Part shown: positions 24,023 through 57,877 of the stretch, piece by piece | Numbering within the stretch: the first letter of the stretch is position 1 | How the letters are laid out: each line of letters opens with the position of its first letter | IMG/VR virus record: IMGVR_UViG_3300032327_000792 | From: a virus | Lineage: Duplodnaviria; Caudoviricetes | Length of the DNA: 64,000 bases | Strand: one strand, 5' to 3' | Translations under genes and position numbers: made by a program | Notes under the pieces: generated by a model | What the model was told of the DNA's origin: nothing | What the model saw: the letters and a program-made list of their open reading frames with translations, nothing else | Database searches by the model: none

Positions 24023-24115
24023 GCTATAGCATTAACAATGACGCCAATGGTACAACCATTTTACTGCTGTTTAACAGTAGAACGCCGTTGAGTTATAGCG
24101 TTGAGATCGATCAAC
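24023..24115 (+). ncRNA. Candidate structured 5' leader (motif copy A)
   Basis: Outer stem GCTATAGC/GTTATAGC; inner hairpins AATGGT/ACCATT and CTGTT/AACAG; core TGACGC...TTACT-N15-AACGCC; hairpin GTTGA/TCAAC just before the RBS. Confidence 0.5.
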
Positions 24116-24136
24116 TAATACAAAGGGAAACAAAAA

Positions 24137-25120
24137 ATGACATATTCAGTAGGCGGATTAATACAAGCAACAGATTACAATGGATTTGCATCCACCACCG
24201 CAGGAGCAAACGCTAATAGCATTTGGGGCACCGGCGCCACGGACATTGGATACGGACAATCAACAATATTAGACACTGTGGCTGCAGGTGCAATAGTGTC
24301 TGCTACCCAGTGGGCCAGTTTAAACAGTCGTATCAGCACAATAGCCAGTCATCAAGGCACTGCAATCACATCAAGAACCAATCCAGTAGCAGGAGGTACC
24401 ATTGCTATTTTGGCGGCACTCAACACAGACTTGACTAACCTTACAACCAACCGTGGTAGTGCTGCTGCAAGTGGCACCCAGTATACAGCGTGGACAGGCA
24501 CATCAAGCAAAGACTCGGCCACTGGTTCTGGAGGCGATCCTTGGACCATAACATTCACACACACAATCACATTTGCCAATGCTGCCAGTGCCAGATATTT
24601 CTTCAACGCAGGCGGACGTATCAAGTGGGAAACATCAAAAACATCCACAGGCACAACAGCTGATGACGAGTGGAATGATTTGGCCAATACATTGGTAGGT
24701 GATATCTATATCACCGGCGGAACAGCCACACAGACCATTGCAGGTACAGCATACACCGGCACCACTAGCATAGGTGGCACTGGAACTCCAACTACCTTGG
24801 CCACCACAACCGGATTCTATGATTTGACAACAACGCCAACAACTATTTACAAACAGTTTGCCGATACATATTTGTACACTGATCAATTTATTCAAATCAA
24901 TGCCAGTGTCAACGCAGGCGGCACTGCGATTACGTTAACAACACTCTGGACTGATCCAGGCGGCGGCTTCTTTCCAAACGACAATATTTCAGGCGGCACA
25001 ACTACAACAGGTATTTCATTTGGTACAGCACCCGCAACAGTGGTCACATATTTTCCACCAAGCACAAACAATCTAACCAATACTTGGGGCACACCAACTG
25101 TAGCAGCCACTGTAGCGTAA
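24137..25120 (+). CDS. Thr/Gly/Ala-rich virion structural protein
   Basis: 327 aa, strongly T/G/A-rich, 'ARYFFNAGGRIK' segment; last gene of the structural block before a terminator. Confidence 0.65.
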   Translation: MTYSVGGLIQATDYNGFASTTAGANANSIWGTGATDIGYGQSTILDTVAAGAIVSATQWASLNSRISTIASHQGTAITSRTNPVAGGTIAILAALNTDLTNLTTNRGSAAASGTQYTAWTGTSSKDSATGSGGDPWTITFTHTITFANAASARYFFNAGGRIKWETSKTSTGTTADDEWNDLANTLVGDIYITGGTATQTIAGTAYTGTTSIGGTGTPTTLATTTGFYDLTTTPTTIYKQFADTYLYTDQFIQINASVNAGGTAITLTTLWTDPGGGFFPNDNISGGTTTTGISFGTAPATVVTYFPPSTNNLTNTWGTPTVAATVA

Positions 25121-25138
25121 TCAACCTCAGCTTTACCA

Positions 25139-25166
25139 AAAGGGCGTTCGCGCCCTTTACTTTTTT
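25139..25166 (+). terminator. Intrinsic terminator closing the structural block
   Basis: AAAGGGCG-TTCG-CGCCCTTT hairpin followed by ACTTTTTT. Confidence 0.8.
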
Positions 25167-25184
25167 CAAAATATGTTGTACAAT
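25156..25184 (+). promoter_or_regulatory. sigma70-type promoter for the tailoring operon
   Basis: TTTACT-17 nt-TACAAT ending 6 nt before the ATG at 25191, so the mRNA would be nearly leaderless. Confidence 0.55.
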
Positions 25185-25190
25185 TAATCT

Positions 25191-25496
25191 ATGAATACTG
25201 ATCAACTAGTTTCTCACTCACGAGCTCGATTTGAGCACGTTGCTACTCGTCGACTGCTCAAAGAAAAATACCAAGGCAAAATGACATTTGCATGGAATGG
25301 CGGCATGTTTCGAGCAACTCCTGAAATGATAACATTTTTAAGTTTGTACGGCGACAAGCCAATTGTTGTACAAGATTTATACGAAAATCCCGTTGAAGTA
25401 AATGCCAAGCAAGTGTGCGAGTTTATGAAGGAACGATTGCAAGAGCAAATGAATGCATGGTTAGTGGAATTTCAAGAAGCCAACAAAAACAGATGA
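25191..25496 (+). CDS. Hypothetical protein (101 aa)
   Basis: First gene after the promoter; ATGA-coupled to the next gene. Confidence 0.7.
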   Translation: MNTDQLVSHSRARFEHVATRRLLKEKYQGKMTFAWNGGMFRATPEMITFLSLYGDKPIVVQDLYENPVEVNAKQVCEFMKERLQEQMNAWLVEFQEANKNR

Positions 25497-26299
25497 CCCA
25501 AGGTGCATTGATTTTTGCATTCAACAATGATCAACTTGATTATTTGAGTATGGCCAATTGGAGTGCTCAAAACATTCGCAGACATCTTGGATTGCCAACT
25601 TGTGTGGTCACTGACATTGAACATATTCCGTCACACTATAATTTTGAACAAATAGTATTGGCCACAGCTCGCGAACCCAGCATGCGGCACTTTGGCGACA
25701 TTGACCAAGTAGTTACCTGGTACAATGGCAATAGAGTGGATGCCTATGACATCAGTCCCTGGGATCATACCTTGGTTTTGGATGCCGACTATGTGGTGGC
25801 CAGTGACCAATTAAGGGTATTGTTTTCATGTTCGGAAGATTTTTTAGCACATCAACAAGCCTACGATATAACAGGGCTACAATCATTTGACGATTTAAAT
25901 CAATTTGGTAAGTATCGAATGCCCATGTGGTGGGCCACTGTGATGTTATTTCGACGTAGCACTGGCGTCAAACTACTGTTTGATTCAATGAAAATGATTA
26001 GAGAAAATTGGTCGCACTATAGACAAGTTTATCAAATTCCTAGATCTACCTATCGCAACGATCATGCACTGAGTATTGCATTGGGCATGGTCAATGGACA
26101 CGCACTCGATCACGCACAAATTCCCTGGGATCTGGCATCGTTGACTTCGGGACAAACGTTAGAATACATTGAGCAAGATTGCTATAAAATTAATTTTATC
26201 AATTCTCAAAATCAGCTCAAATGGATACATATAAAAAATCAAGATTTTCATGCCATGGGCAAACGACATTTGGGGAACCTAATTGCCAATTCAAAGTGA
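25493..26299 (+). CDS. GT-A-fold glycosyltransferase-like protein
   Basis: Start moved to the ATGA-coupled ATG at 25493. 'ALIFAFN...DYLSMA' N-terminus, DxD motif 'TLVLDADY', 'WWATVMLF', 'RNDHALSIA'. Confidence 0.65.
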   Translation: MTQGALIFAFNNDQLDYLSMANWSAQNIRRHLGLPTCVVTDIEHIPSHYNFEQIVLATAREPSMRHFGDIDQVVTWYNGNRVDAYDISPWDHTLVLDADYVVASDQLRVLFSCSEDFLAHQQAYDITGLQSFDDLNQFGKYRMPMWWATVMLFRRSTGVKLLFDSMKMIRENWSHYRQVYQIPRSTYRNDHALSIALGMVNGHALDHAQIPWDLASLTSGQTLEYIEQDCYKINFINSQNQLKWIHIKNQDFHAMGKRHLGNLIANSK

Positions 26300-27071
26300 A
26301 CGTGGGTACCTAATACCAGCGGTCAACACCCGAGATGTTGACTACGTGGCATGTGCTCGACAGCTGGCACAAAGTATTAAATTATGGCATCCAACTGCAC
26401 AAATATGCTTGCTCACTGACCAACCATACAGTGATCCAGTGTTTGACTTTGTAAAAATATTGCCGTACGGAGATTGTAGCAATAATCATAGTTGGAAATT
26501 AAGCAATGACTGGCAATGTTTTGCTGGTAGTCCATTTAGACAAACAATCAAACTAGAAGCAGACATGATTGCCGCTGGTCCAGTGGATCATTGGTGGACC
26601 TTGTTTGAAAAAAAGGACCTTGTGATCAGCAAGGGTTGTAGAGATTTTTACGACAATATCAGTGATTGCAGATTTTATAGAAAACTGTTTGATAAAAATC
26701 AATTGCCTGACGTATACAATGCTATAACCTATTGGAGAGTCAGTCCATTGGCCAAACAGTTTTTTCAACATGTAAAAAATATTTTTGAACACTGGGACAG
26801 TTATAAAACATTGTTGAAGTTTCCAGATGCAGAACCTACTACAGACGTGGTATATGCCATGGCCGCAACAATTATGGGAGAGGAACATTGTACATTGCCA
26901 GACAATCTAGGCCCCAGTATAGTCCACATGAAACGCCATGTTATACCAACACTGACCTCAGATTGGACTCAAGAATTGATCTGGGAAAACACCGACCCGG
27001 GGCTAAGAATCAACACAGTGGCACAATGGGGATTTGTTCACTACCATAACAAACAATGGCGAGTAGAATGA
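26283..27071 (+). CDS. GT-A-fold glycosyltransferase-like protein, paralogue of the preceding gene
   Basis: 'RGYLIPAVN...DYVACARQLA', 'SPFRQTIKLEADM' (ExD in place of DxD), 'TTDVVYAMA', C-terminal 'HYH'. Confidence 0.62.
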   Translation: MPIQSERGYLIPAVNTRDVDYVACARQLAQSIKLWHPTAQICLLTDQPYSDPVFDFVKILPYGDCSNNHSWKLSNDWQCFAGSPFRQTIKLEADMIAAGPVDHWWTLFEKKDLVISKGCRDFYDNISDCRFYRKLFDKNQLPDVYNAITYWRVSPLAKQFFQHVKNIFEHWDSYKTLLKFPDAEPTTDVVYAMAATIMGEEHCTLPDNLGPSIVHMKRHVIPTLTSDWTQELIWENTDPGLRINTVAQWGFVHYHNKQWRVE

Positions 27072-27415
27072 GCAAAGATACAACAGATAATTTTTGGTCA
27101 GCATGGGGTCAGCAAATTGAATCAACGTTGCCAATATTCTATAGACTATACCATGATGATCAAGGATATCCTTTATTTTACAGCATGGAAGATTTACCAG
27201 GTAATTACATTGACATTGATCAAGAAACATATGCACTGTCGTCATCCAAAGTGCGAGTAGTCAATGGAAAATTAAAAAATAATACTGTGGCACTCACTGC
27301 TAAACTAAGACCCGGTACTATAGGAACAGCATGTCATTACAAAGATATTTGTATAGTTGTGTCCGAAGATCAAAAACATATTAAATGGAGGTTTAAGCAG
27401 AATGACCAAGATTGA
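27068..27415 (+). CDS. Hypothetical protein
   Basis: ATGA-coupled start at 27068; 115 aa. Confidence 0.65.
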   Translation: MSKDTTDNFWSAWGQQIESTLPIFYRLYHDDQGYPLFYSMEDLPGNYIDIDQETYALSSSKVRVVNGKLKNNTVALTAKLRPGTIGTACHYKDICIVVSEDQKHIKWRFKQNDQD

Positions 27416-28328
27416 CATAGCAGATTTGGACTGCATATATCTCTCCTACGACGAACCACAGAAGGAAGAATTCTGGGTAAAGATACGCAACATGGTGCCA
27501 TGGGCCCGACGTGTGGATGGAGTCAAAGGCAGTGATGCCGCACACAAGGCAGCAGCTGCGGCCAGTGACACTGAACGATTTGTTTTGATTGATGGTGACA
27601 ACTTGCCTGACGAGAAGTTTTTTAACTTGACTTTAGAGTTAAAGGATGATCGGTATGAATCAGCGGTGTTTCGCTGGAGAGCTCGTAATCATGTCAATGG
27701 CTTGATGTACGGCAACGGTGGACTGAGTTCATGGACACGGTCATTTGTGAACACTATGAAAACACATGAAATCACTGACGGCAGAGACGAAACTGTGGTG
27801 GAGTTTTGTTTTGATCCATTGTACTGGGCCATGCACGATTGCTATTCAACCACATATCCCAATGGATCGGCTCGTCATGCTTGGCGTGCAGGATTCCGCG
27901 AAGGTGTCAAGATGTGCTTGAACAAAGGCTCGAAACCCACAGTCACAGAGTTTCGAGATCGTGTGCATCAACGCAACTTAGACCATTTGACCATATGGCA
28001 CAATGTGGGTGCAGATGTAGATTACGGATTATGGTCCATTGCTGGCGCAAGAATGGGCACATACATGACCATGCTCACTGATTGGGATTATCGACAGGTG
28101 CAGAGTTTTGATGCCTTGGAAGAATTATGGTCAACAGTGGCAGAACAAGATCCGGAGTTATTGGCCAACCGTGTGGCTGAGGATTTGTCTACACAACTGG
28201 ATTTACCTGTGATGTCAATGTTTGCAGAACAAAGTTGCTTCTTCAAGAGACACTATCGTAGTAATTGGCACAATCAAGGTGTGATGGTTAGAGAAATTGA
28301 TGTTATTAGACAACAGGAAGGTTGGTAA
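27402..28328 (+). CDS. GT-A-like glycosyltransferase
   Basis: GGAGG RBS before the ATG at 27402; 'DCIYLSYDEP...RVDGVKGSDAAHKAAA...FVLIDGDN' with DxD; 'AWRAGFREGVKM'. Confidence 0.6.
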   Translation: MTKIDIADLDCIYLSYDEPQKEEFWVKIRNMVPWARRVDGVKGSDAAHKAAAAASDTERFVLIDGDNLPDEKFFNLTLELKDDRYESAVFRWRARNHVNGLMYGNGGLSSWTRSFVNTMKTHEITDGRDETVVEFCFDPLYWAMHDCYSTTYPNGSARHAWRAGFREGVKMCLNKGSKPTVTEFRDRVHQRNLDHLTIWHNVGADVDYGLWSIAGARMGTYMTMLTDWDYRQVQSFDALEELWSTVAEQDPELLANRVAEDLSTQLDLPVMSMFAEQSCFFKRHYRSNWHNQGVMVREIDVIRQQEGW

Positions 28329-28329
28329 A

Positions 28330-29427
28330 TTGAGTTGGACATGCGCCGCCATTGATCACGGTGTAACAGTTTTCCCTAACGGTAAAATTGGTCCTTGTTG
28401 TCAAGTTGCCAGCGACTATTTAAAACCTATATCAGAATTATCAAATCCTAATAGATTTATAGACTTAAAAACACAAGATTGCCCTCAGGAACACCCATGC
28501 AGTAAATGTGCTGCCGCGGAATATAACGGATTAAAAAGTTACAGAAGCATGTTCAATGAAACAGTAACACCTGCTGCAGGACTACAATTTGTTGATATTA
28601 GAAATACCAATTTTTGTAATTTAAAATGTAGATATTGTGGACCACATTTTAGCAGCCAATGGGCAGAAGAACTTGATAGATTTCCTATAATACAAAGTCA
28701 AGACCTATTTGATTATAAAAAGTTGTTGATTACCGATTCACTGCACTGGATGTACTTTACCGGCGGTGAACCCTTGATATCCAGCGACCACTGGAAATTA
28801 CTTGAGGAATTGATTGATGCCGGGAAATCCTTTCAGATATCACTGATGTATAATACTAATTTAACTACAATAAAGTATAAAGATAAAAATATCATTGATA
28901 TTTGGAAAAAGTTCAAAAATGTTAACATACAATGCAGCATTGATGCTGTTGGTGAACCATTGGAATACATCAGATCCGGAACCAGTTGGCCTAAAATAAA
29001 ATCAAATCTAGAACAACTATTAGAAAACTCACAAAATAATATTAATATTGGCTTATCTCCAGTATTAAGTATTTTAAATATTTGGTTCATTGACGAATTA
29101 TACAAGTATGCCAAGTCAAATAATATCAAAGTTTACCCGATAGTACTGACTGGTCCAGACTATCTAGCATTAAATGTAGTGCCAGACAATTTAAAATCAT
29201 TGGCACTGGATAAAATCAATGCCATTGAATCTAGTTACAACATTGATAAAGAGATGGTACTACAAATTAAAAATTTAATCAATAACAATATTAACCAATG
29301 TCTATTTGCACAAACTATATCACATATACTACTATTAGACAATCTACGAGGTGAAAAATTGTTTGATCTACTGCCTTTTAAATCTATAGCCATTGACAAT
29401 ATTTTGAAAAATCACGAATATGAATAA
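28330..29427 (+). CDS. Radical SAM enzyme #1 with N-terminal Twitch/SPASM-like domain
   Basis: 'CAAIDHGVTVFPNGKIGPCC', 'CSKC', CxxxCxxC 'CNLKCRYC', 'FTGGEPL'. Start placed at TTG 28330 after AGGAAGG; the track start is 28297. Confidence 0.88.
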   Translation: MSWTCAAIDHGVTVFPNGKIGPCCQVASDYLKPISELSNPNRFIDLKTQDCPQEHPCSKCAAAEYNGLKSYRSMFNETVTPAAGLQFVDIRNTNFCNLKCRYCGPHFSSQWAEELDRFPIIQSQDLFDYKKLLITDSLHWMYFTGGEPLISSDHWKLLEELIDAGKSFQISLMYNTNLTTIKYKDKNIIDIWKKFKNVNIQCSIDAVGEPLEYIRSGTSWPKIKSNLEQLLENSQNNINIGLSPVLSILNIWFIDELYKYAKSNNIKVYPIVLTGPDYLALNVVPDNLKSLALDKINAIESSYNIDKEMVLQIKNLINNNINQCLFAQTISHILLLDNLRGEKLFDLLPFKSIAIDNILKNHEYE

Positions 29428-30835
29428 CAAAGACGACAATGTTACAACGGATTTTAAATCTATATTCCTAAGTTCAGCAGAGCAAATGAAATCCAATCTA
29501 GGATCAGCACTCTGTTTGGCCAAATGGAAACAAGTTAGCCTACATCTACCAACTGGACTCAACAACAGTTGTTATCATCCACCATTGCACGTAATTGATG
29601 CCAATGTATTAAAAGATAATCCCAGTGCTTTGCATAACACAGCACACAAAAAAGAGCAACGCAAGATCATGCTCAAGCAAGAGCGTCCACAAGAGTGCTC
29701 TTACTGCTGGACAATGGAGGATAACGGCAAACTAAGTGATAGACACTATCGATCAGGTGAACCATGGGCGGCCAAAGACTTTGATGCAATAACCAATTCC
29801 AACGGAGATGAAGATGTTATACCTAGTTATGTGGAAGTTAATTTTAATCACGCTTGCAATCTTAAATGTAGTTACTGTAGTCCTCAATTTAGCAGTTCCT
29901 GGCAACAGGAAGTGGATCAGTTTGGCGGTTATCCTACTAGCACTGAACACAATGCTCCTAGTCACTTCACTGGTCGTAACAGGCCAATACCTGTAAGAGA
30001 AGAGAACCCCTATGTGGATGCATTTTGGCAATGGTGGCCCACGCTGTATCCAGAATTAGCACACTTCCGTATGACTGGCGGTGAGCCCATGCTGGACAAA
30101 AACACCTATAGAGTATTTGATTATGTGTTGGCCAATCCCAAACCAGACCTACATCTAAATGTAACATCAAACTTTTCTGTGGATGAACGTTCATGGAACC
30201 GATACTTGGGCTATGTAAAGCAGTTGTGTGAGGGTCAAAAGATTGAACACTTTATGCAGTTTGTGAGTCTGGACTCGTGGATGGAGCAAGCGGAATACAT
30301 TCGTGACGGGTTGGATTTTGATTTGCTTTGGGACAGAGTGAATCAATTCTTAACTGAAATTCCAGGACGTAATTCAATTACTTTTATTGTGACCATGAAC
30401 AATCTCAGTGTCACTGGACTGGGTAAGTTGATGGCTGGTATACTGGGACTACGTAAAATATATTCACAAACATATCAACGTGTGTGGTTCGACACTCCGG
30501 TGTTACGTACACCCACATGGCAAAGCCTGCAATTGTTGCCCGAAAGCTACGTGGACCAACTGGAACAAACATGGGCGTGGATGATGAAAAACTTAGAAAC
30601 TGTCGATGATCCATTTCACGGATTCAAAGATTATGAATTGTCTAGATTGGACAGAGACATTGCCTGGATGCGAGATGGGCAGAAATTAGATGCGCAATAT
30701 GTTCAACAAAACAAAGCAGACTTTTACCGTTTCTTTGCAGAACACGATCGTAGACGTGGTACTGATTTTTTAGCAACATTTCCAGAAATGACTGCATGGT
30801 GGAAAGAATGTGAGTACCATGCTAGGCAAGCGTAA
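29420..30835 (+). CDS. Radical SAM enzyme #2 (CxHPP subtype)
   Basis: 'LCLAKW...NSCYHPP', 'CSYCW', 'CNLKCSYC', 'MTGGEPM'. Confidence 0.9.
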   Translation: MNNKDDNVTTDFKSIFLSSAEQMKSNLGSALCLAKWKQVSLHLPTGLNNSCYHPPLHVIDANVLKDNPSALHNTAHKKEQRKIMLKQERPQECSYCWTMEDNGKLSDRHYRSGEPWAAKDFDAITNSNGDEDVIPSYVEVNFNHACNLKCSYCSPQFSSSWQQEVDQFGGYPTSTEHNAPSHFTGRNRPIPVREENPYVDAFWQWWPTLYPELAHFRMTGGEPMLDKNTYRVFDYVLANPKPDLHLNVTSNFSVDERSWNRYLGYVKQLCEGQKIEHFMQFVSLDSWMEQAEYIRDGLDFDLLWDRVNQFLTEIPGRNSITFIVTMNNLSVTGLGKLMAGILGLRKIYSQTYQRVWFDTPVLRTPTWQSLQLLPESYVDQLEQTWAWMMKNLETVDDPFHGFKDYELSRLDRDIAWMRDGQKLDAQYVQQNKADFYRFFAEHDRRRGTDFLATFPEMTAWWKECEYHARQA

Positions 30836-47358: not shown

Positions 47359-47476
47359 TTTTATTTTCAATCTTGTGTTTGCGAAAATCGCATAGTTTAT
47401 GATAGCCCATTTGATAACAGGCACAATGTTTTCCCAGAATCTTCTTGGCCAGCCACTGTCTAAATTTTACAATCAT
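47342..47476 (-). CDS. 44-aa Cys/His-containing basic micro-protein (not in the ORF track)
   Basis: MIVKFRQWLAKKILGKHCACYQMGYHKLCDFRKHKIENKNVTKI*; ATGA-coupled to the upstream ORF. Confidence 0.62.
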   Translation of the reverse strand: MIVKFRQWLAKKILGKHCACYQMGYHKLCDFRKHKIENKNVTKI

Positions 47477-49100: not shown

Positions 49101-49127
49101 ATAAGTCCTTATTTCTTAATATAGTAT

Positions 49128-49156
49128 ATTATACTGTATGTACCATTTCTGGTCAA
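49128..49156 (-). promoter_or_regulatory. sigma70-type early promoter (TTGACC class)
   Basis: TTGACC-17 nt-TATAAT; AAGGA RBS downstream. Confidence 0.75.
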
Positions 49157-49161
49157 CCATG

Positions 49162-49187
49162 AAAAAGCCCACTCACAGTGGGCTTTT
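49162..49187 (-). terminator. Intrinsic terminator after the porin gene (possibly bidirectional)
   Basis: AAAAGCCCAC-TCACA-GTGGGCTTTT hairpin with A and T runs on either side. Confidence 0.8.
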
Positions 49188-49206
49188 CTTCTTCTAAATC
49201 AGCAAC

Positions 49207-50298
49207 TTAGAATGCGTGACGAATGCCAAATCCAAATTGTTCAACTTCGGTTTTTGCCAATGAATCTTTAGTTTCAGTGTTGGATGCACCATAAGCAACA
49301 TAACCGGTTGTACGCTTGCTAAAAGCATATAGAGCAGCAACTTGATATCCGCTCAAGTCTTGTTTGGTTGTTGTGGTAGGTTTATTCTCGCCACTGAAGT
49401 AAGAGGTCTGGAGAGTCGTCTTACCGAATGGAATAGCAACGCCAACTTCTGCTACCTTCTTGTTGTTGATAACGTTGCTTGACCCATTGAGGTCTTTGCC
49501 TTGTGCGTAAGTAACAAAAGCCTTGGCCACTGTAAAGTCGTAGTTGGCACCAAACACCAACTGCTCCGGATTGCTACCGGTTGTTGCGCCAGCAATTCTT
49601 GCACCATCCAAAGTTTTATCTTCTTTGGAATAACCAATCATGGCATTCAGCTGGCCAGCTGAATAAGCAATACCCAGACCTGTTTCTTTTGCCTGATCTG
49701 CGGTTGTAACAGTAGTGGCTTGATTGTTACGCTCGCCAAATGCTGCTTGAATTGTAAATCCAGCAAAGTTTGGTGAGGTGTAGTTAATCAAGCGATCGCT
49801 ACGTGTGTTATTCAATTTTGTTGAGCTTGTGTAAGCACGACCAATAAAATTATTGCCTGCGCCAACGTCACCAACAAACCATGCTTTTTCAGAAATAGTT
49901 GTTTGACGGCCAATGTCCAACGAACCAAAAGAACCTGACAAACCAACAGTGGCAATACGAGTAGTCATATTACCAGCGGCATCAGTGCCCGAGTCTACGT
50001 CGGTAGCAGTACCATCAGTGTCGGACAAACCAAACTCATAGACAAAATTAGCTTTTAAACCACTACCTAGGTCTTCGGTACCTCTAAAACCCAAACGGCT
50101 TGATGTATAAGCACCGCCATTGCCTGTGGTTTTATCTTTGACTGATGTGGTTACACCAGCTGTACTGGTCGTATCAGTGGTTGTTGAGGTAATACCGCCG
50201 TCAACAATGCCGTATATGGTAATTGTGGATTGAGCGTGTGCTGTTGTTACAAACAATGACGATACCAAAACCGCCATTAACATTTTATTAAACTTCAT
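49207..50298 (-). CDS. Gram-negative general diffusion porin (Burkholderiales/Neisseria-type)
   Basis: Signal peptide ending AHA; 'ITIYGIVDGG', 'SRLGFRGTEDLGSGLKANF', 'YAFSKRTTGYVAY'; C-terminal 'GIRHAF' ending in Phe. Confidence 0.92.
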   Translation of the reverse strand: MKFNKMLMAVLVSSLFVTTAHAQSTITIYGIVDGGITSTTTDTTSTAGVTTSVKDKTTGNGGAYTSSRLGFRGTEDLGSGLKANFVYEFGLSDTDGTATDVDSGTDAAGNMTTRIATVGLSGSFGSLDIGRQTTISEKAWFVGDVGAGNNFIGRAYTSSTKLNNTRSDRLINYTSPNFAGFTIQAAFGERNNQATTVTTADQAKETGLGIAYSAGQLNAMIGYSKEDKTLDGARIAGATTGSNPEQLVFGANYDFTVAKAFVTYAQGKDLNGSSNVINNKKVAEVGVAIPFGKTTLQTSYFSGENKPTTTTKQDLSGYQVAALYAFSKRTTGYVAYGASNTETKDSLAKTEVEQFGFGIRHAF

Positions 50299-50403
50299 AG
50301 TTTTCCTTATTAAGAGTGTATATTAATGTCACAGAGACTGGACCTCATTGTCAATGTTTCTGTAAAGGTTAATAAGCTGAGTAGAAAGGGTCTACCTACA
50401 GAT

Positions 50404-50501
50404 GGCGTTCTGAACGTATCACGTTAGTAAATGAGTAGTTACTCAAAGCGTCAATTTGAAGTCTGACGTCAACAGATTGTCGGCGTTGCTAATATTATTT
50501 A
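50404..50501 (-). ncRNA. Candidate structured 5' leader of the porin gene (motif copy B) with a TAAATA box
   Basis: Minus strand: TAAATA-N5-AGCAACGCC...TGACGC-[TGAGT/ACTCA]-TTTACT-[AACGT/ACGTT]-CAGAACGCC. Confidence 0.5.
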
Positions 50502-50537
50502 GTCCAGCAATATCAGCAGAAATATTTTGGTTATACG

Positions 50538-50804: not shown

Positions 50805-51135
50805 CTACATAACCGGGTTGATTTGGATGGCTCAGCACAAACCAGTTTAGTTCCTGATCCGATCGTACATAGATTCTGTATTCATTGTACTTGATTGAGT
50901 ATGCCCAATGCAGGTTAAAATCGGTGGCTTGAGTGCGACCTATTTGCGAACGAGTTTCAACGTCCTGACTCCATCCGTAGGTTTCGTTGAACCAGCGACG
51001 ACTACGATCAAATTCCAACACACCTTGATTGCTTCTGATGTACATGGATTCGTGAGTTTTCTTGAACTCAATCATGTAAGCAAACTGATCGTTCCAAGCG
51101 TGTCTGCGATCTAGTTGGGTCATTTCATAATTCAT
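50797..51135 (-). CDS. Hypothetical protein (112 aa)
   Basis: Co-oriented ORF after the AAA gene. Confidence 0.65.
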   Translation of the reverse strand: MNYEMTQLDRRHAWNDQFAYMIEFKKTHESMYIRSNQGVLEFDRSRRWFNETYGWSQDVETRSQIGRTQATDFNLHWAYSIKYNEYRIYVRSDQELNWFVLSHPNQPGYVDD

Positions 51136-51147
51136 CTCTTACCTTGC

Positions 51148-51203
51148 AAAAAGAAGGAAGGCAGTGCGAACACAGCCTGTGAATACAACCACACCACCCT
51201 CCT
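51148..51203 (-). terminator. Long hairpin with a T run after the AAA gene
   Basis: Minus strand AGGAGGGTGGTGT...GCACTGCCTTCCT (about 13 bp including G-U pairs, large loop), then TCTTTTT. Confidence 0.45.
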
Positions 51204-51211
51204 GTAACCTA

Positions 51212-52297: not shown

Positions 52298-52344
52298 GGC
52301 TGTGTCCTTAATCAAAGTTTAACAAAATTTAATACTGTAGAACT

Positions 52345-52373
52345 ATTGTACTGCAAACTGCAATACTGGTCAA
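52345..52373 (-). promoter_or_regulatory. sigma70-type early promoter (TTGACC class)
   Basis: TTGACC-17 nt-TACAAT. Confidence 0.72.
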
Positions 52374-52476
52374 CTGTGCTGGTTTTATTTTAGAGTCTAA
52401 AACCAGCAAAATTTGACTGCTTCGGTTCTGGGGTATCAAGGCTCCCCAAGGCAGGCACCTGCCCATTACGGCCTGT

Positions 52477-52821
52477 TTAATCTAGTCGGCTACCTGCGTA
52501 GGCACGGAAACCGTATTTCTCAAACACCTTCTGAGCGGCCAAGGCACCGGCTTCTTTGGTGTCAACGTTCTGAGCACCGTGTTCTGAAGGATTCCAAATT
52601 GAGAAACATTTCTTGTAGTCTGATCGTTCAATACCAGCGGCTTTTAGTGTTTTGCCTAGTTTGGTGTTGCCTTTGATACCGTAGATATCAACCCAAGCAA
52701 AACCACAGGCATACTGATCTTGTCCACCTAATCGGGTTTGAAAGTATTCATCAGCGGCCTTGCGAGCTTCTGCTTTGGCTTCTGCAACAATGTTTCGAAC
52801 TTGTTCTACTGTGTATTCCAT
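52477..52821 (-). CDS. Hypothetical early protein (114 aa)
   Basis: Has its own promoter and an AGGAG RBS; 'YACGFAWV' segment. Confidence 0.75.
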   Translation of the reverse strand: MEYTVEQVRNIVAEAKAEARKAADEYFQTRLGGQDQYACGFAWVDIYGIKGNTKLGKTLKAAGIERSDYKKCFSIWNPSEHGAQNVDTKEAGALAAQKVFEKYGFRAYAGSRLD

Positions 52822-52851
52822 TTTAGCTCCTAATGTTTAACTATATGTAAT

Positions 52852-52880
52852 ATTGTAACAAATTGGGTATTTTTGGTCAA
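52852..52880 (-). promoter_or_regulatory. sigma70-type early promoter (TTGACC class)
   Basis: TTGACC-17 nt-TACAAT; the leader TTAAACATTAGGAGC is shared with the promoter at 53422-53450. Confidence 0.75.
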
Positions 52881-52911
52881 CCTAACTGTTTGGGTTGCTA
52901 AGTCATTGATT

Positions 52912-53082
52912 TTAAACAGTTTTTTTACGGCTGGCATCCATAAAAGTTATCAATGCCTGTTGTTCTGTTTTGTTTAACTGTTTAAAATGACCCACCATGA
53001 GTTCCATGCCCTTTAATGGGTCTTCGATTTGATTGGCACCAAAAAAATCTTCAATGATTTCAAAGGCTTGCTCTATGATCAT
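52912..53082 (-). CDS. 56-aa hypothetical protein (not in the ORF track)
   Basis: MIIEQAFEIIEDFFGANQIEDPLKGMELMVGHFKQLNKTEQQALITFMDASRKKTV*; ATGA-coupled. Confidence 0.68.
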   Translation of the reverse strand: MIIEQAFEIIEDFFGANQIEDPLKGMELMVGHFKQLNKTEQQALITFMDASRKKTV

Positions 53083-53390
53083 AGGTAACGGGCTCCGTAC
53101 ACTGTGACCGCTGTACCTACACCACAGTTGGTGTCAAAAATACTGCCACGTGCTGTTTTGGCCGGAGCATTCCATCCTGCAGCCATCAAAATATCACCGT
53201 TGGATAAATCTACAAAGCTGTGAACAGTACGCTGATTGGATTCTTTGACAATCTTGGCATACTTGCGACCTTTGCTTAAGGTCATCTTTGGAACTTCTAG
53301 GTTTGGAAATCTGGTTTGATAATGTGTTTCAACCAGTCCTGTGAGTTTACGCATAAACAACTCTAATTGACGTTCTACATTCTTTTCCAT
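53079..53390 (-). CDS. Hypothetical early protein (103 aa)
   Basis: 'GRKYAKIV...VHSFVD...GDILMAAGWNAPAKTARGSIF'; own promoter and RBS. Confidence 0.75.
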   Translation of the reverse strand: MEKNVERQLELFMRKLTGLVETHYQTRFPNLEVPKMTLSKGRKYAKIVKESNQRTVHSFVDLSNGDILMAAGWNAPAKTARGSIFDTNCGVGTAVTVYGARYL

Positions 53391-53421
53391 TTTGGCTCCT
53401 AATGTTTAACTGTATAACAAC

Positions 53422-53450
53422 ATTATACCGTTTTAGGACTTTCTGGTCAA
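53422..53450 (-). promoter_or_regulatory. sigma70-type early promoter (TTGACC class)
   Basis: TTGACC-17 nt-TATAAT. Confidence 0.75.
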
Positions 53451-53471
53451 CCTTTTATAAAACGTCAAATA

Positions 53472-54602
53472 TCAAAGACTATCATTGGTCGGTAACTGAA
53501 TTAGATGGCTAAATTGATCTTGTTCGCCGGTGAATTGTATGTTTAGAATATAACGATCAACATTGCTATCATTAACAACAGCATGTGCAAAATTTTTATT
53601 GTTGATTATGGCATCGCCGTCTGGAAGTAATCCAAACCCTGAAAACTTCATCATATGCCCTGGGCTTTCATTTAATTTTATGTACAGACCACGTAACCCA
53701 GTGTCAGCATCCAGTCTTGATTTTGAGTAACCGTCTATGTGTGGATACAGGCAACATCCAGCTGGAAGATAGCCAACCCAGGCTGAGAATATATTGGTAA
53801 CAGGCAGAGATGAAATAAAAGAATAAATTTCCGGTATATCACCGGGATCACAAGTGAGTCTCTGTTGCCATGATTTTGTGTTGTTGCATTCAGGATCAAC
53901 AATAAACCATAGTTGCCAATTACGAGGTTCGCCATCTATCACAGTCATAGTGAGCTCTCCTAGGGTCTTGTCTTCGATACAGGAAAATTTTTCTTGGTTG
54001 ATTGCACGTACAGCTTCGGTTAACATGAGTTTTTTTTGCGAACAATCTAATCCAGAGTTGTAAGATAGCCATGGTATGTTGTGGTTGTGTAACCAGTGGT
54101 CGAGATGTACATTGTCGTAACATCCAAAATCAGTGTTGAATTTAAAAAAGTCCTTTATTATCTTGGGCCACTTCTCAGATAAACTTATGGATTGCGGCCA
54201 AAAAATTTGTCGATGTTCACTGATATCTAGTCCAAGTAATCCATTGAAATGTTTAGTAGCTGTCAATCCAACCCAGGAGGCCAATGGAGACATAAAAGGC
54301 AAGGTCCATGTTTTTAAATATGAGTTAAGTTCTATACATGGTTGTATTTTAGACCCTTGGATAAGTTCTCCCCAAGAAAGATACAGTAAATTGTTTAAAC
54401 CCAAGCTATCCCCGTCTATTAAAACATCAACAATCTTATAGTCATTCAATGAATCAATTGTTAGATAACTTAAATTAAACAGTGTATAGTCAGCATCTAT
54501 CTGTACGTGGGTGTCATTGACTTGACAAACAATTGCAGGTTGTCCATTGATTTTAAATTTCAAATCATGTTGATAAGCACGGTCAAATATAATAGTAATC
54601 AT
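53472..54602 (-). CDS. Protein with a C-terminal 2OG-Fe(II) oxygenase-like (Asp/Asn beta-hydroxylase-like) domain
   Basis: 'YLPAGCCLYPHIDG' (HxD)...'FAHAVVN' (distal His)...'DRYIL' (Arg); roughly 200-aa N-terminal region of unknown function. Confidence 0.65.
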   Translation of the reverse strand: MITIIFDRAYQHDLKFKINGQPAIVCQVNDTHVQIDADYTLFNLSYLTIDSLNDYKIVDVLIDGDSLGLNNLLYLSWGELIQGSKIQPCIELNSYLKTWTLPFMSPLASWVGLTATKHFNGLLGLDISEHRQIFWPQSISLSEKWPKIIKDFFKFNTDFGCYDNVHLDHWLHNHNIPWLSYNSGLDCSQKKLMLTEAVRAINQEKFSCIEDKTLGELTMTVIDGEPRNWQLWFIVDPECNNTKSWQQRLTCDPGDIPEIYSFISSLPVTNIFSAWVGYLPAGCCLYPHIDGYSKSRLDADTGLRGLYIKLNESPGHMMKFSGFGLLPDGDAIINNKNFAHAVVNDSNVDRYILNIQFTGEQDQFSHLIQLPTNDSL

Positions 54603-55297
54603 AGATCAACTTGAATTATTCGATCACTATTATTTTCTAACAAAAATTTTTGTGTTTTTTCAGTCACGGTACCCGAAATTTGCAACATGGGTCTTGGCCA
54701 CCACCCCATGTTGCAGGTACTATGAGGTATGTCTCGATATTCCCAAGTGATACAATCCCCAGCTTTCCACTGAGTCCAGTTGGCATTGCCTAGTTGAAAA
54801 ATCTGTCCCCATCTCCAGTCCTCGAGCATGACAGCAAATCTACGACCTGGGTTGCCATCTCGTTCAAATCCGTCAAGATAGTCCATGTGGGTGACCAACA
54901 AATGACCAGTCTGTTGTAAATTAAAACGAATGTCGTTGTTTTCCATACCGATAATTGCGGACATTTTTTTAAACAATGGTTCATCATCTCCAAATGCTCG
55001 ATCAAACATAATTTGGTCAGGATCAAATCCAGCTTGTTTGTGATCCAGTTGTTCAGCTAGTGCGTTTTTTAACGGATCGTTGGCTGGGTATTGTTTTCGA
55101 ACACCAGTTGCCCACGTAATAGATTCTACTTGTTTTTTGTATTTTTCAATTATAGGGGCAAAGTCAGCAATAAATCTTCCAACAGGACTATAGCTATCAA
55201 TCCCCAGTTCAGGAGGACGAAACGGATCAAAGTGCCAGTTACTTCGGTCACGGGTGAATTGCCACCGCGACCCTTTGTATTCATTGTTTTTTTGCAT
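54599..55297 (-). CDS. 2OG-Fe(II) oxygenase-like protein
   Basis: 'QQTGHLLVTHMD'...'WKAGDCITW...IPHST...PRPML'; start could be 55297 or 55336. Confidence 0.7.
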   Translation of the reverse strand: MQKNNEYKGSRWQFTRDRSNWHFDPFRPPELGIDSYSPVGRFIADFAPIIEKYKKQVESITWATGVRKQYPANDPLKNALAEQLDHKQAGFDPDQIMFDRAFGDDEPLFKKMSAIIGMENNDIRFNLQQTGHLLVTHMDYLDGFERDGNPGRRFAVMLEDWRWGQIFQLGNANWTQWKAGDCITWEYRDIPHSTCNMGWWPRPMLQISGTVTEKTQKFLLENNSDRIIQVDL

Positions 55298-56828
55298 GAT
55301 TGAGTTTGTTTGATTTATATTGGTTGATAAATTCAAGAGTAGTTTTTAACAACATGGATTTTGGTACATTGGGTATCACATTGTGATATCCCCAGGTACG
55401 CATTTCGTCAACTGTTAGTCCAGTGTAAGAATGTTCAAATATAGCCCACGGACTCCACTTTCTAGTAACACTTTTTTCATTCAATGACATTGCTTGTTTA
55501 CTGGCATCAAAGTAATTTTTACCAGTGCTAGAATTTTTCCAAAGTATAAGTTTTTTTCTTACAGTGTCTCTTGCAAATGATGCCTGTTGAATAGTTGAAT
55601 CTCCCAATTCTTGTTTTTCTTTTTCGGCCAGTTCGCTAATTTCACGATCTGATAGCTCAACATATCCATACATAAGAGCATTTCTACTGAACTCGCTGTT
55701 GTGAATAGTAAATTTAGGATTAGGCAAATACAAAGGTTGCCACGACCAATGGTCTATGCCGCTTTCTTTTTCATACCATTCGTTGGCGTCCCAACACTCT
55801 TCGTCGCGTTGATACGGCAAGCCAACAATGTTGGAACAAGTTATATGAGTACGTGGCAAATCTTCACGGCATCGAATAATGCCTTCTTTGATACGATTTG
55901 GATCCATGCCCTTGCCTATTGCTCGGCCTGCTTGTTGATTAAAAGTTTCTATGCCAAAGTGAACACCCCGCATACCCATTTCCCCCATGAGTTTGGCCAT
56001 GGTGGGGTTTGAGATCATTAACTCCATTTTAGCGTAGCACATAAACTCAATGTTGAATGGCAATTTTTCCAATGCAGAATGAAGACTCTCAATCTTGATA
56101 AGACTATCGTTGAACGTGTCTTCGCTGATAAAATATTTGTTTACTCCCCATGTTTCGTAGTTGAATTTTATTTCATCTACCAAACTCTGAATGTCGCGTA
56201 GATAGTCTAGTTTTTTCTTGCCTATCAATGGATAGGTACAAAATTTACATTTGAACAAACATCCTCTTGCAGTTTCTAACGCTACTGCTTCATTTGGCTG
56301 TATGTAATCACTGTCGAGATAAGAAATAGTAAGATCACTGGTATCAATCTCTTTGTAATCTTCATTGCAAGAAATAAAATTTTTGTCAGTTCTAAACGTA
56401 CTCCATCGAACACCTTCTCTGGGTATTTGTTTTTTGAGATAGCGTATAAAATCCAAAATTGCCTGCTCGGCGTAACCTTCAATGTAGTAGTCAATATTCT
56501 GTGAGGTGCGACTCAACAAATTATTTCCGCCAATTACCACAGGCTTGTCAGGATAAAGTTCTTTCCATTTAGAGGTCAACGGATCCACAGCCGAGTCATT
56601 GGTGATAAGGTTGGCTGCTATGCCCAAAAACAGTGTTTCGGGCCCAACAAACATATCCATGGCCTGACACCACTCATCCATAGTCCAGTGAGTAACAAAG
56701 TCAATGACCTCTACGGTGTATCCATGTTGTCTAAGATGAGTGGCAATTCTATGGGCACCACTGGCACGAGAAATACCACTACCGCCATCTATAAAATTGT
56801 TGTCGCCAATGATCAGTATGTCGGCCAT
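55281..56828 (-). CDS. Radical SAM enzyme with an N-terminal cobalamin-binding-like domain (class B methyltransferase-like)
   Basis: N-terminal 'GAHRIATHLRQHGYTVEVID...PVVIGG', 'ETARGCLFKCKFC', 'SEDTFN', 'FGIETFN', 'IVGLP'. Confidence 0.85.
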   Translation of the reverse strand: MADILIIGDNNFIDGGSGISRASGAHRIATHLRQHGYTVEVIDFVTHWTMDEWCQAMDMFVGPETLFLGIAANLITNDSAVDPLTSKWKELYPDKPVVIGGNNLLSRTSQNIDYYIEGYAEQAILDFIRYLKKQIPREGVRWSTFRTDKNFISCNEDYKEIDTSDLTISYLDSDYIQPNEAVALETARGCLFKCKFCTYPLIGKKKLDYLRDIQSLVDEIKFNYETWGVNKYFISEDTFNDSLIKIESLHSALEKLPFNIEFMCYAKMELMISNPTMAKLMGEMGMRGVHFGIETFNQQAGRAIGKGMDPNRIKEGIIRCREDLPRTHITCSNIVGLPYQRDEECWDANEWYEKESGIDHWSWQPLYLPNPKFTIHNSEFSRNALMYGYVELSDREISELAEKEKQELGDSTIQQASFARDTVRKKLILWKNSSTGKNYFDASKQAMSLNEKSVTRKWSPWAIFEHSYTGLTVDEMRTWGYHNVIPNVPKSMLLKTTLEFINQYKSNKLNHAKKQ

Positions 56829-56830
56829 TT

Positions 56831-57703
56831 TTATTGTCCGTAAATGTTTCGGAAAATTTCTCTACGCTGTAGGTACTCTTTCCAAAGATCCTTTCTAGTT
56901 CCTGTGTTGGTTTGAAAATAACCAGAATCAAGTTGAGTTTTCAACGGTGCGCCAGATTTAAGCATGGCCGAGAAATCTTTGTGTAACTGATCTGCTGATC
57001 CATTTTTTATCACAGCGGTGTACATAAACTGGAAATCCACAAATTTTCCTTTTGGAATCATTGTTTTAATACCAGGAAAATGTCGATCACTGTCCCCCAT
57101 TTTAGCCAAGCAACTCATACGACCTTCTTGTACCATTGGTACAACTCGAGACTCCGCCGTGGCAATCCAATCAATTTCTCCACTCAACAGTCCAGTGGTC
57201 ACTTTTCCTCCGGTGGTGTATGGCACTGGCTGAAGATTACTGCCAATGTTTTTGTTGATATCTTTGACTACTTCAGTCCAAAAATCATGTGGAAATGGGA
57301 ATCCAAAGGTTTTGCCATTTTTAAAACTGCCAAGATCAGCATTGGCATTTCCTCGGGTGCAAATAACCTGCGCCTGACTGGTCAAAAACACCAAATTTGT
57401 TTGTGTAATCGGAACACCGCAGTTGTGCTTGTCAAGTTCATTGCTGAGCCAGTGGTCGCCGTAAAACACAAACAAAAGATTTTCTCCTTTGAATTTATGG
57501 TAGATTTCCACAGCTTTGGTACAGTTACCCGCATTAATAACTTCAACTGTGTCGTATTTGGTCTTGAGTTCAGTGACCACAGTGTTGATAAATTCGTGTG
57601 CAATGCTCCCGGGACTTTCGCCCTGAAGCACGGTGATTTTTGTTCCGGCCCAGACAGCACTGGCCATAAAAAACGAAAGCATAATAGTAAAAATTTTAAA
57701 CAC
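56831..57703 (-). CDS. Bug/TctC-like periplasmic solute-binding protein
   Basis: Signal peptide ending AVWA; 'VPYTTGGKVTTGLLSGEID' resembles the Bug/TctC motif VPYKGGAPAxxDLLGGxVD. Confidence 0.7.
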   Translation of the reverse strand: MFKIFTIMLSFFMASAVWAGTKITVLQGESPGSIAHEFINTVVTELKTKYDTVEVINAGNCTKAVEIYHKFKGENLLFVFYGDHWLSNELDKHNCGVPITQTNLVFLTSQAQVICTRGNANADLGSFKNGKTFGFPFPHDFWTEVVKDINKNIGSNLQPVPYTTGGKVTTGLLSGEIDWIATAESRVVPMVQEGRMSCLAKMGDSDRHFPGIKTMIPKGKFVDFQFMYTAVIKNGSADQLHKDFSAMLKSGAPLKTQLDSGYFQTNTGTRKDLWKEYLQRREIFRNIYGQ

Positions 57704-57786
57704 AGATATTCCTCCAATAAAAATATATATTACACTATTTTTCCATGATAGTCAATCTAAATGGCTTGCAATATCTTGCTACGGAC

Positions 57787-57877
57787 GGCGTTAGGGATTT
57801 CCCATACAAGTGTCGAACTTTTGCGTCGTTTGGATTCCGGCGTCACTGACAAATGGCGCTGCTCACAAATATTTATA
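57787..57877 (-). ncRNA. Candidate structured 5' leader of the TctC-like gene (motif copy C) with an exact TATAAATA box
   Basis: Minus strand: TATAAATA-N6-AGCAGCGCC...TGACGCC...ACT-[GGG-AAAT-CCC]-AACGCC; GC-rich relative to its flanks. Confidence 0.4.

Follow-up and report, generated by a model that had tools for sequence, protein, structure and literature searches.

Introduction

Structured leader RNAs as conserved and covarying as the one described here have usually proved to be riboswitches or other sensors, new classes of which are rare, and most riboswitch classes, but not all, occur in cells too. In translational riboswitches, such as the add adenine ON switch, a helix that sequesters the Shine-Dalgarno (SD) sequence is in competition with the closing helix. 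Phages reportedly carry orphan cis-regulatory motifs of their own before auxiliary genes: the manA, wcaG, PhotoRC-II and glnA (glutamine-II) motifs of cyanophages, said to have been described by Weinberg and colleagues in 2010 and to be held in Rfam. Examples of translational control by a bound protein are T4 RegA and the gene 32 leader, and the T4 late promoter, TATAAATA, is read by gp55 and gp33 with the sliding clamp. Arbiol and colleagues are said to have described in 2010 the promoter-stem-loop (PeSL) cassettes of T4-type phages, in which an early sigma-70 promoter accompanies a simple stem-loop and which are thought to be recombination anchors.

The window analysed here is a stretch of 64,000 nt from the 74.6-kb record of an uncultured tailed phage (IMGVR_UViG_3300032327_000792). 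A preliminary description had proposed one structured leader motif in three of its gaps, before a virion gene (copy A), a porin gene (copy B) and a TctC-like gene (copy C). Our results show that the three sites are copies of one RNA family.

Results

The letters of the common words are present in all three gaps as described, and a covariance model picks the same gaps. Over the whole record the word pair TGACGC-N20-60-AACGCC occurs exactly three times, against about 0.15 expected from word frequencies, and all three occurrences are intergenic and in the orientation of the next gene. The model was seeded with IMG/VR relatives and copies B and C, copy A being left out. When the window was searched with cmsearch, copies B and C scored 91.3 and 59.1 bits, both over model positions 1-111, and copy A scored 31.6 bits (E about 2e-5) as a local match to positions 33-86, while the best other place reached 14.7 bits. 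The search of the full 74.6-kb record, which had been suggested as a check, returned the same copies and nothing else (91, 59 and 32 bits; next score 15).

Stringent local alignment could not separate the copy pairs from dinucleotide shuffles. The relationship of the copies is settled only by the external family, which is decisive, and by permissive scoring. Under permissive scoring the B and C leaders aligned better than 1000 of 1000 shuffles and A with B better than about 93-99% of them; the A-C pair was not significant. Word counts showed no enrichment of the motif words in the record, and a reading as DNA-uptake sequence or genome-wide repeat was dropped for that reason.

The anatomy of the copies (Table 1) revises the earlier account in several respects. 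The positions of the words stand, but not the lengths: B and C are full motifs of about 100-116 nt and A is the core only. The alignment of copy C was one module out of register, since TGACGCC at 57845 corresponds to the P1 3' strand plus the long-range helix and is not homologous to the TGACGC of A and B; its true junction word is CGACGC, and the ACT assigned to it falls within P2. The string TAAATA-N5/6-AGCA(A/G)CGCC common to B and C is present, but is better read as a box resembling a late promoter and, after it, the 5' strands of P0 and P1.

Table 1. Positions of the three copies, their parts and the adjoining genes in the window.
Feature	Position	Strand	Basis or detail
Type III leader carrying copy A	24019..24127	+	MFE fold z = -3.8
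Type III pairing, CCC with Shine-Dalgarno GGG	24019-21 with 24125-27	+	
Type III closing stem, closes copy A	24023-36 with 24087-99	+	13 bp
Copy A, three-way-junction core only	24037..24088	+	AAUGACGCC / P2 24046-60 / UUACU / P3 24064-80 / AGAACGCC
Type III hairpin GUUGA/UCAAC	24100-15	+	
Conserved phage protein gene after copy A	24137..25120	+	tail-fibre/baseplate block
TAAATA box resembling T4-type late promoter	50496..50501	-	5 nt before copy B
Copy B, full type I motif	50375..50490	-	cmsearch
Copy B P0	50490-88 with 50377-75	-	
Copy B P1	50486-66	-	
Copy B long-range helix CAG:CUG	50465-63 with 50401-399	-	compensatory variant of family CGG:CCG
Copy B junction word UGACGC	50453-48	-	
Copy B P2	50445-32	-	
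Copy B UUUACU	50431-26	-	
Copy B P3	50425-13	-	
Copy B AGAACGCC	50411-04	-	
Copy B P4	50395-81	-	
UUAAUAAG, overlaps porin Shine-Dalgarno AAGGA (50308-04)	50306..50313	-	sequence reading
Porin gene after copy B	49207..50298	-	Pfam Porin_4, E 1e-44
TATAAATA, perfect T4 late-promoter consensus	57870..57877	-	6 nt before copy C; overlaps TctA stop codon
Copy C, full divergent type I motif	57763..57863	-	cmsearch; P2, P3 and P4 present with different stem sequences
Copy C junction words CGACGC and AACGCC	57828-23 and 57792-87	-	
Sigma-70-type promoter TTGACT-17-TAATAT	57727..57755	-	consensus scan; between copy C and TctC-like gene
TctC-like binding-protein gene after copy C	56831..57703	-	Pfam TctC, E 4e-4, below curated cut-off

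Relatives were gathered by two independent IMG/VR pattern scans with non-overlapping patterns, which gave at least about 120 distinct sequences. The RNA of about 110 bases has six helices: P0, P1, a long-range CGG:CCG helix, P2, P3 and P4. Its conserved core is a three-way junction, enclosed by the long-range 3-bp helix, with near-invariant single-stranded joints (UGACGCY, UUUACU and AGAACGCC) and with P2 and P3 varying freely. Of 54 distinct sequences among the matches listed in one set, 96.4% of positions in the helices were paired, with double changes in 20 of 24 pairs and 314 compensatory cells; for the 69 distinct sequences among the matches listed in the second set, pairing was 93.2% and double changes affected 25 of 27 pairs. 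None of 500 shuffles equalled the observed pairing or covariation in these sets, and slid structures used as a control were 27-50% paired. Positions left free as R/Y in the search pattern covary as well (A-U 31, G-C 12, A-C 1). The covariation expected of homologues is thereby present, and the argument that conserved linkers with swapped stems betray an RNA structure is borne out by compensatory changes in relatives. In P0 most pairs show little variation. A screen for further covarying columns or pseudoknots returned G-U-inflated noise and one additional P3 pair only, and copies B and C taken singly fold no better than shuffles (z = -1.45 and +1.6). The conserved, covarying, aptamer-like structure is a real structured RNA.

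The same junction is found in three scaffolds, which we call types I, II and III; in one case it is duplicated in tandem. Copy A, which consists of the core alone and is inserted in the leader of a virion gene, is a variant that recurs: the type III architecture precedes the orthologous gene in seven other phage contigs, and its closing stem, P2 and P3 show compensatory changes. The CCC:GGG pairs are invariant and hence have no covariation support. The protein encoded after copy A has 138 relatives in IMG/VR and is 34% identical, over 57% of its length, to a protein of Pseudomonas phage PA5oct whose annotation reads virion structural or baseplate wedge/tail pin. It matched no family in Pfam or PHROG, and the Atlas look-up returned viral hypothetical proteins only.

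In 109 of the 114 distinct full members among the matches listed, a TAA[AG]TA box lies upstream, its end 3-7 nt from model position 1. TAAATA is enriched about 5-fold in the record's non-coding DNA, stands 11-57 nt ahead of several late genes and, in the window, also precedes baseplate, fibre and late structural genes. The phage has T4-like baseplate genes. In form the box matches the T4-type late promoter: it sits immediately ahead of late genes and consists of a -10 element like TATAAATA, with no -35 element. The motif always has the orientation of the downstream gene; its median distance to the next reading frame is 27.5 nt, most members ending 20-30 nt before the start codon with no terminator between. 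Judged from sequence, this is riboswitch-type placement, in cis and in the 5' leader before a gene. What stands of the proposed leader RNA of late genes is the structured RNA, its 5' leader position and its T4-type late-promoter box. Because a good sigma-70-type promoter lies downstream of copy C, the TctC-like gene can probably be transcribed without the leader as well.

The 109 distinct proteins encoded downstream of the listed relatives include 28 TctC, 26 DctP, 6-10 NMT1-like, five porin and three TctA proteins, so that solute-binding proteins of three transporter families make up about 64 of the 109. Whereas the Pfam match of the gene after copy C is weak, the TctC genes behind the 28 other members are clear ones. 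The remainder includes the virion protein, hexapeptide acyltransferases and unknowns, which would be odd for a single metabolite. The suggestion that the motif co-regulates envelope and virion genes is accordingly only partly apt, the family cargo being mainly periplasmic solute-binding proteins and the virion-gene copy a separate core-only subtype.

The preliminary description had recognised no known family, and Rfam 15 (4227 models) agrees. At the gathering threshold the window gave a tRNA and nothing else, and 14 canonical relatives gave tRNA and tmRNA only; Polynucleobacter-1, manA, wcaG, PhotoRC and the known riboswitch and ribozyme classes did not reach that threshold. At permissive E-values (up to 5-10), seven relatives and copy B had no match on the motif. 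It was not found in 151 evenly sampled Burkholderiales genomes or in a separate set of five; one 28.6-bit match in the larger sample was dropped, as the core is missing from it and the site, between fliD and fliS, is antisense to fliS. All 120 matches listed in a 5'-pattern scan of genome contigs were chance, nearly all in high-GC DNA, and have no bearing on bacterial occurrence. A blastn search of GenBank phages, of low sensitivity for a 124-nt RNA, gave no match, and no prior description was found in the full-text literature, including discovery papers from the Breaker laboratory. By these searches the RNA family is previously undescribed. Its carriers are uncultured T4-related jumbo phages of fresh water, and it seems restricted to such large lake phages. 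Their host group is probably freshwater Betaproteobacteria.

In type II, the P0 3' strand (CUCCUUUC, CUUCUUUA or CUCCUUCUU) pairs with a 5'-end GGAGC, GAAGC or GGAGU, and alternatively with the SD flank (GAAAGGAG, UAAAGGAG or GAGAAGGAG), in helices of 8-9 bp and -12 to -16 kcal/mol with matching changes. In copy B, CUUAUUAA (50376-50369), which overlaps the P0 3' strand, is perfectly complementary to UUAAUAAG (RNAduplex, -6.0 kcal/mol), and this weakly suggests an alternative 8-bp helix between that strand and the porin ribosome-binding site. No tail-to-SD alternative pairing was found for copy C, and family-wide tail-to-SD complementarity was not significantly above controls (p = 0.06 and 0.5). 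Mutually exclusive structures can be recognised clearly, with covariation, in type II, and are plausible for copy B and type III. The ability of the P0 3' strand to pair with the ribosome-binding site in type II and copy B points to a translational switch, support for which is confined to type II and a small number of type I subgroups, with weak support from copy B.

Discussion

The best explanation of these results, to which we give a probability of roughly 45%, is a new family of leader RNAs at the start of late messages, in which the junction would act as an effector sensor that controls translation. Transcription from the T4-type late promoter (TAAATA) would start at the first base of the RNA, within a base or two, and the leader folds into the outer helix P0, hairpin P1, the long-range 3-bp helix around the junction and hairpin P4. 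The three-way junction would be the sensor domain for an effector acting in trans, somewhat more probably a small molecule or ion than a protein, and binding would stabilise P0. In part of the family the P0 3' strand may double as an anti-Shine-Dalgarno sequence, so that folding would decide access to the ribosome-binding site of the late message.

A more specific version, which we consider possible but doubtful, is a phage-exclusive new riboswitch class: a late-infection readout of a host metabolite or ion through a three-way-junction aptamer, gating translation of solute-binding proteins, porins and one virion protein. If it is true, the virus senses the nutritional state of the cell that it has taken over. 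A ligand sensor would give a handle on the purpose of phage-borne uptake genes and on how phages tune auxiliary genes, and a protein-binding element would reveal a new circuit for late control of translation in T4-related jumbo phages. The motif is abundant (at least about 120 distinct sequences), is tied to the late promoter of the phage itself and has unexpected cargo (binding proteins of the TctC, TRAP-DctP and NMT1 types, and porins), and its compact core of about 50 nt, in three scaffolds, is attractive for probing and structure determination.

A serious competitor, although on balance an unlikely one, is a protein operator, in which a phage or host RNA-binding protein recognises the repeated ACGCC and the leader serves a late translational repressor or activator, not a small-molecule sensor. 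Two ACGCC words lie in the core, at J1 and J3, and type I has two more in its P1, a repetition to be expected if the protein is multimeric; types II and III, however, do not have the two P1 boxes, and the analysis turned up no candidate protein. The motif has so far been seen in phage contigs only and is tightly coupled to a phage-specific promoter, and a protein would also suit the heterogeneous cargo; its six-helix fold with invariant joints, however, exceeds most operators in elaborateness, and 0-2 copies per related 340-kb genome are few for a dedicated regulator.

It is rather improbable that the element belongs to a mobile late-expression cassette as its constitutive 5' module, analogous to the PeSL cassettes, its structure merely stabilising the message or raising translation and travelling with the promoter before acquired cargo. 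Such a module would begin, like this RNA, at the predicted +1, and the same promoter and leader do stand ahead of many unrelated cargo genes, in variable regions and in 0-3 copies per genome; a close IMG/VR search, made for a comparison of orthologous leaders, found no relatives of the porin or TctA of this phage. However, the unpaired joints hardly change and three scaffolds use one and the same junction, which argues for selection on more than a protective hairpin; the anti-SD helix that competes in type II, too, shows covariation.

A stand-alone small late RNA that acts in trans and merely lies beside these genes is very improbable, given the short, terminator-free distance to the start codon in most members, the constant orientation and the position of type III within a conserved mRNA leader. 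What speaks for it is that 15 of 112 members, copy C among them, have a sigma-70-type promoter downstream of P4 and ahead of the gene, such promoters lying only after the motif, that a few members have a terminator-like hairpin with a U-run before the gene, and that the motif is often located in the tRNA/tmRNA region of related phages, whose tmRNA is of betaproteobacterial type. Members with their own sigma-70-type promoter or terminator-like hairpin could conceivably make a separate small RNA. What can be dismissed is a chance resemblance, or a standard sigma-70 promoter (TTGACG-N16/17-TTTACT) whose hairpins are accidental: stringent pairwise alignments are not significant and the two words loosely resemble -35 and -10 boxes, but the consensus promoter scan does not accept them, massive covariation in at least about 120 distinct relatives makes them joints of an RNA junction, and the model finds only the three copies in the window.

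Among described systems, Polynucleobacter-1 RNA (RF01718), which is freshwater betaproteobacterial or phage-associated, shares the habitat and probably the host group of the lake motif, but its model gave no match on any copy or relative scanned. Like PeSL cassettes, the lake motif joins a promoter to a structured element repeated before exchangeable cargo in variable genome regions; unlike the early sigma-70 promoter and simple stem-loop that flank shuffled genes there, it has a late promoter and an RNA of six helices, with joints that do not vary and with compensatory evolution, and so is not a PeSL. It shares with T4 late transcription the TATAAATA or NTAAATA box 4-6 nt before its first base, but in the lake phages this predicted promoter is the driver only and not the novel element. 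The likeness to add-type riboswitches lies in a P0 3' strand that is an anti-SD in type II and copy B and in an aptamer-like three-way-junction core with conserved joints and variable stems, whereas the competing helix is not general in the lake family, which has no sequence or structural homology to the purine or other known classes. The lake motif resembles the manA, wcaG, PhotoRC-II and glnA motifs, whose effectors were unknown at discovery, as a covarying leader structure of phage-carried host-like genes known mainly from aquatic metagenomes, and it differs from them in belonging to freshwater jumbo phages, in its fixed place behind a T4-type late box, in the use of one junction in three scaffolds and in its mainly solute-binding cargo.

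Results

Aligning copies B and C, which precede the porin and TctC-like genes, brought out four ACGCC-like boxes, and the pattern of the first three was scanned in IMG/VR. At least 91 stretches matched, and about 46 unique AT-rich ones form a single family among the matches listed; the non-AT-rich remainder were rejected as coding accidents in high-GC DNA. Outside the search pattern the members share an upstream TAAATA box, UUUACY, AGAACGCC, CCGUA and a terminal AGCU, and their hairpin stems differ in sequence from member to member. RNAalifold gave compensatory changes at 13 of the 19 predicted pairs, also at the R and Y positions that the pattern allowed to vary (A-U 31, G-C 12, G-U 3, A-C 1). 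A covariance model (R1; 111 positions, 24 pairs), run without filters, recovered all three copies in the window (see table), with the next-best place at 14.7 bits, which is noise. Across the whole record, a search that the preliminary description had proposed, the model found only the same three sites, and five related records (317-364 kb, three rated 99-100% complete) carry 0-2 copies each.

The fold was examined in alignments A4 (54 distinct sequences recovered through the 5' pattern) and A6 (69 distinct sequences from a second scan with core words only). In A4, 96.4% of cells pair, with both-side changes at 20 of 24 pairs and 314 compensatory cells; in A6, 93.2% pair, with compensatory change at 25 of 27 pairs. 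None of 500 shuffles reached these values, and sliding the structures by 1-3 columns left merely 27-50% pairing in A4 and A6. Since each scan fixed its own words only, either set independently validates the part fixed in the other, and the covariation in homologues that had been named as a check is abundant in both.

From 5' to 3' the motif consists of P0, P1, a long-range helix around a three-way junction, P4 and the 3' strand of P0. P0 has 2-3 bp (NGC with GCN), covaries between AC:GU and GU:AC, and is extended in type II to GGAGC:GCUCC. The long-range helix, CGG:CCG (CAG:CUG in copy B and several others), encloses the junction, which reads UGACGCY, P2, UUUACU, P3, AGAACGCC. Scanning for further covarying pairs did not find a pseudoknot. 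A variant subtype carries one more hairpin in the linker that precedes the core; in it neither P4 nor the 3' strand of the long-range helix can be recognised.

The words shared by the three copies are present where the preliminary description placed them, and the entire record has three occurrences of TGACGC-N20-60-AACGCC, all of them intergenic and aimed at the next gene; single words of the pattern are not enriched there. Stringent pairwise alignment of the copies gave nothing significant. With permissive scoring B-C beat 1000 of 1000 shuffles and A-B 93-99% of them, and A-C was not significant; pairwise alignment by itself is weak evidence for their kinship. Leader A folds clearly better than its shuffles (z = -3.8), and leaders B (z = -1.45) and C (z = +1.6) have no clear folding advantage. 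Copy B is complete and belongs to type I, and copy C is complete but divergent, with P2, P3 and P4 all there on new stems. The register first assigned to copy C was displaced by one module: TGACGCC at 57845 represents the 3' strand of P1 plus the long-range helix, and the true junction word, CGACGC, lies at 57828-23. Covariation, leader position and the scan of Rfam 15, in which no family matched whether gathering thresholds or E-values up to 5-10 were applied, support the original reading of an unrecognised structured cis-acting leader, and the family of A, B and C is almost certainly a real structured RNA.

Features in the window and in related contigs
Feature	Location	Strand	Remark
Single reading frame, 4700 aa	7787-21889	+	within baseplate/fibre block
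Copy A	24037-24088	+	31.6 bits, E ~2e-5; local match, positions 33-86; not in R1 seed
Copy B	50375-50490	-	91.3 bits; in R1 seed
Copy C	57763-57863	-	59.1 bits; in R1 seed
Near-consensus sigma-70 promoters	49101-49206, 52316-52476, 52822-52911, 53391-53471, 61302-61400, 62723-62783, 63185-63250	-	intergenic gaps
Weak TctC-like gene	56831-57703	-	after TctA, copy C in between
Sigma-70-type promoter	57755-57727	-	after copy C
TctA gene	57873-59192	-	upstream of copy C
Duplicated core	L159:200-348	-	tandem, single scaffold
Variant subtype	L358:6478-6595, L364:3622-3728		additional linker hairpin
Two-piece tmRNA	L140:1984-2337, L090:5391-5775, L142:3408-3764, L089:1542-1865		near motif; also L083, L106, L128
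DctP-family cargo	L141:8695-9639, L114:3796-4731		examples from A7

Most relatives of the virion-type gene after copy A have a gap of 15-25 nt before the gene. In one subclade the gene is preceded by a conserved leader composed of CCCAGC, a variable covarying hairpin, GCGUUGAAAUUGAUCAAC and then AAAGGGAAA, which occurs without the junction core in L023, L048, L057, L058, L059, L063, L077 and L080 (~100 nt before position 3001) and is thus conserved independently of the core; it has a CCC with the potential to pair with the Shine-Dalgarno (SD) GGG. In copy A and seven other contigs (L304, L332, L337, L340, L362, L371, L373) the junction core stands in place of the hairpin tip, and the closing stem, P2 and P3 all show compensatory changes. 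The same core is thus found in three scaffolds: type I in B, C and most relatives, type II, with other P0 and P1, before NMT1-like binding proteins, and type III in A. In one contig (L159) the core, GACGC-P2-UUUUAA-P3-UUAACGCC, is tandemly duplicated within a single scaffold. This modularity marks the junction as the likely functional unit of the RNA.

The record (74.6 kb, of which the window covers 64 kb; CheckV completeness 22%) is part of the genome of a T4-related jumbo myovirus: PHROG matches identify genes for baseplate hub and wedge, one reading frame spans 4700 aa, and relatives of its genes sit on viral contigs of 175-365 kb. Late virion genes occupy the plus-strand half of the window. 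Genes of the minus-strand half lie behind near-consensus sigma-70 promoters (GTTGACC-N17-TATAAT), a series that marks this half as an early region read by the host polymerase. Within it lie the porin and TctC-like genes with their late-type leaders.

A TAA[AG]TA box whose end lies 3-7 nt (mostly 4-5) upstream of model position 1 is present in 109 of the 114 distinct full-length members, and copy C has a perfect TATAAATA box overlapping the TctA stop codon. TAAATA is about five-fold enriched in the record's non-coding 5.5% and lies 11-57 nt upstream of genes for baseplate and fibres; going by what is established for T4, we take it to be a gp55-type late promoter. T4 late promoters initiate about 6 nt downstream, so the RNA would begin at P0. 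From the end of the motif to the following reading frame the median distance is 27.5 nt. A sigma-70-type promoter lies between P4 and the gene in 15 of 112 members, copy C among them, so that such genes may be expressed early from messages lacking the leader and late from messages that include it. Between motif and ribosome-binding site, L305, L341 and L369 (type II) have a terminator-like hairpin and U-run, and L307, L352 and L388 (type II) have a sigma-70-type promoter and no such hairpin. Related contigs have a two-piece (permuted) betaproteobacterial-type tmRNA and several tRNAs near the motif, and in L140 the tmRNA terminator is followed directly by the TAAATA box and motif. The tmRNA type suggests betaproteobacterial hosts for these phages.

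Pfam matches for 109 distinct downstream proteins gave TctC (28), DctP (26), NMT1-like (6-10), Porin_4 (5), hexapeptide transferases (5), TctA (3) and DUF2061 (2); eight more proteins are orthologues of the gene after copy A, and the rest are unknowns. The gene after A has viral-only relatives and is distant kin of a PA5oct protein whose annotation is virion structural or baseplate. No TctB was seen at the TctA/TctC-like locus. Downstream of the motif, the 26 phage TRAP solute-binding proteins of the DctP family (alignment A7) start at profile position 10-12 (MKPIHIKWVLAHEP...) and have no signal peptide, so they would be cytoplasmic, which is unusual for the family.

Discussion

A multi-helix fold with invariant joints, free stems and a leader position is the signature of a sensor RNA, and the type II members provide direct evidence of switching at the sequence level. 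In these, the 3' strand of P0 has two possible partners, the 5' end and the SD flank: CUCCUUUC with GGAGC or GAAAGGAG, CUUCUUUA with GAAGC or UAAAGGAG, and CUCCUUCUU with GGAGU or GAGAAGGAG. The SD-flank helix has 8-9 bp (-12 to -16 kcal/mol), is in the MFE structure, and changes in step in the three variants. On this reading, sensor folding would free the ribosome-binding site. For copy B there is a comparable alternative, a perfect 8-bp helix (50376-69 with 50313-06) that overlaps the porin SD. In type III the CCC is predicted to pair with the SD GGG, which would give a polarity opposite to that of type II, and copy C has no alternative helix with its SD. Across the whole family, tail-to-SD complementarity did not significantly exceed that of controls (p = 0.06 and 0.5). 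Given the uneven window copies and this family-wide result, we propose the switch tentatively, at a probability of about 0.45; its effector would be a small molecule with somewhat greater likelihood than a protein.

The repetition of ACGCC words and a phage-only distribution keep in contention a protein operator, in which the leader is bound by a protein, and we consider this unlikely though the nearest competitor. As to distribution, blastn gave zero matches in GenBank phages, five Burkholderiales genomes gave none, and an even sample of 151 gave zero true matches, its sole match being false and antisense to fliS; in a genome-wide pattern scan the matches listed were all chance hits, and the scan is uninformative on occurrence in genomes. 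Below both the switch and the protein operator we place a purely constitutive cassette, which is improbable, and a trans-acting small RNA, which is more improbable still.

Full-text literature searches and discovery papers yielded no earlier description of the motif. In kind it comes nearest to orphan leader motifs of phages (manA, wcaG and PhotoRC-II) and to translational ON switches such as the add adenine riboswitch; it belongs to none of these groups.
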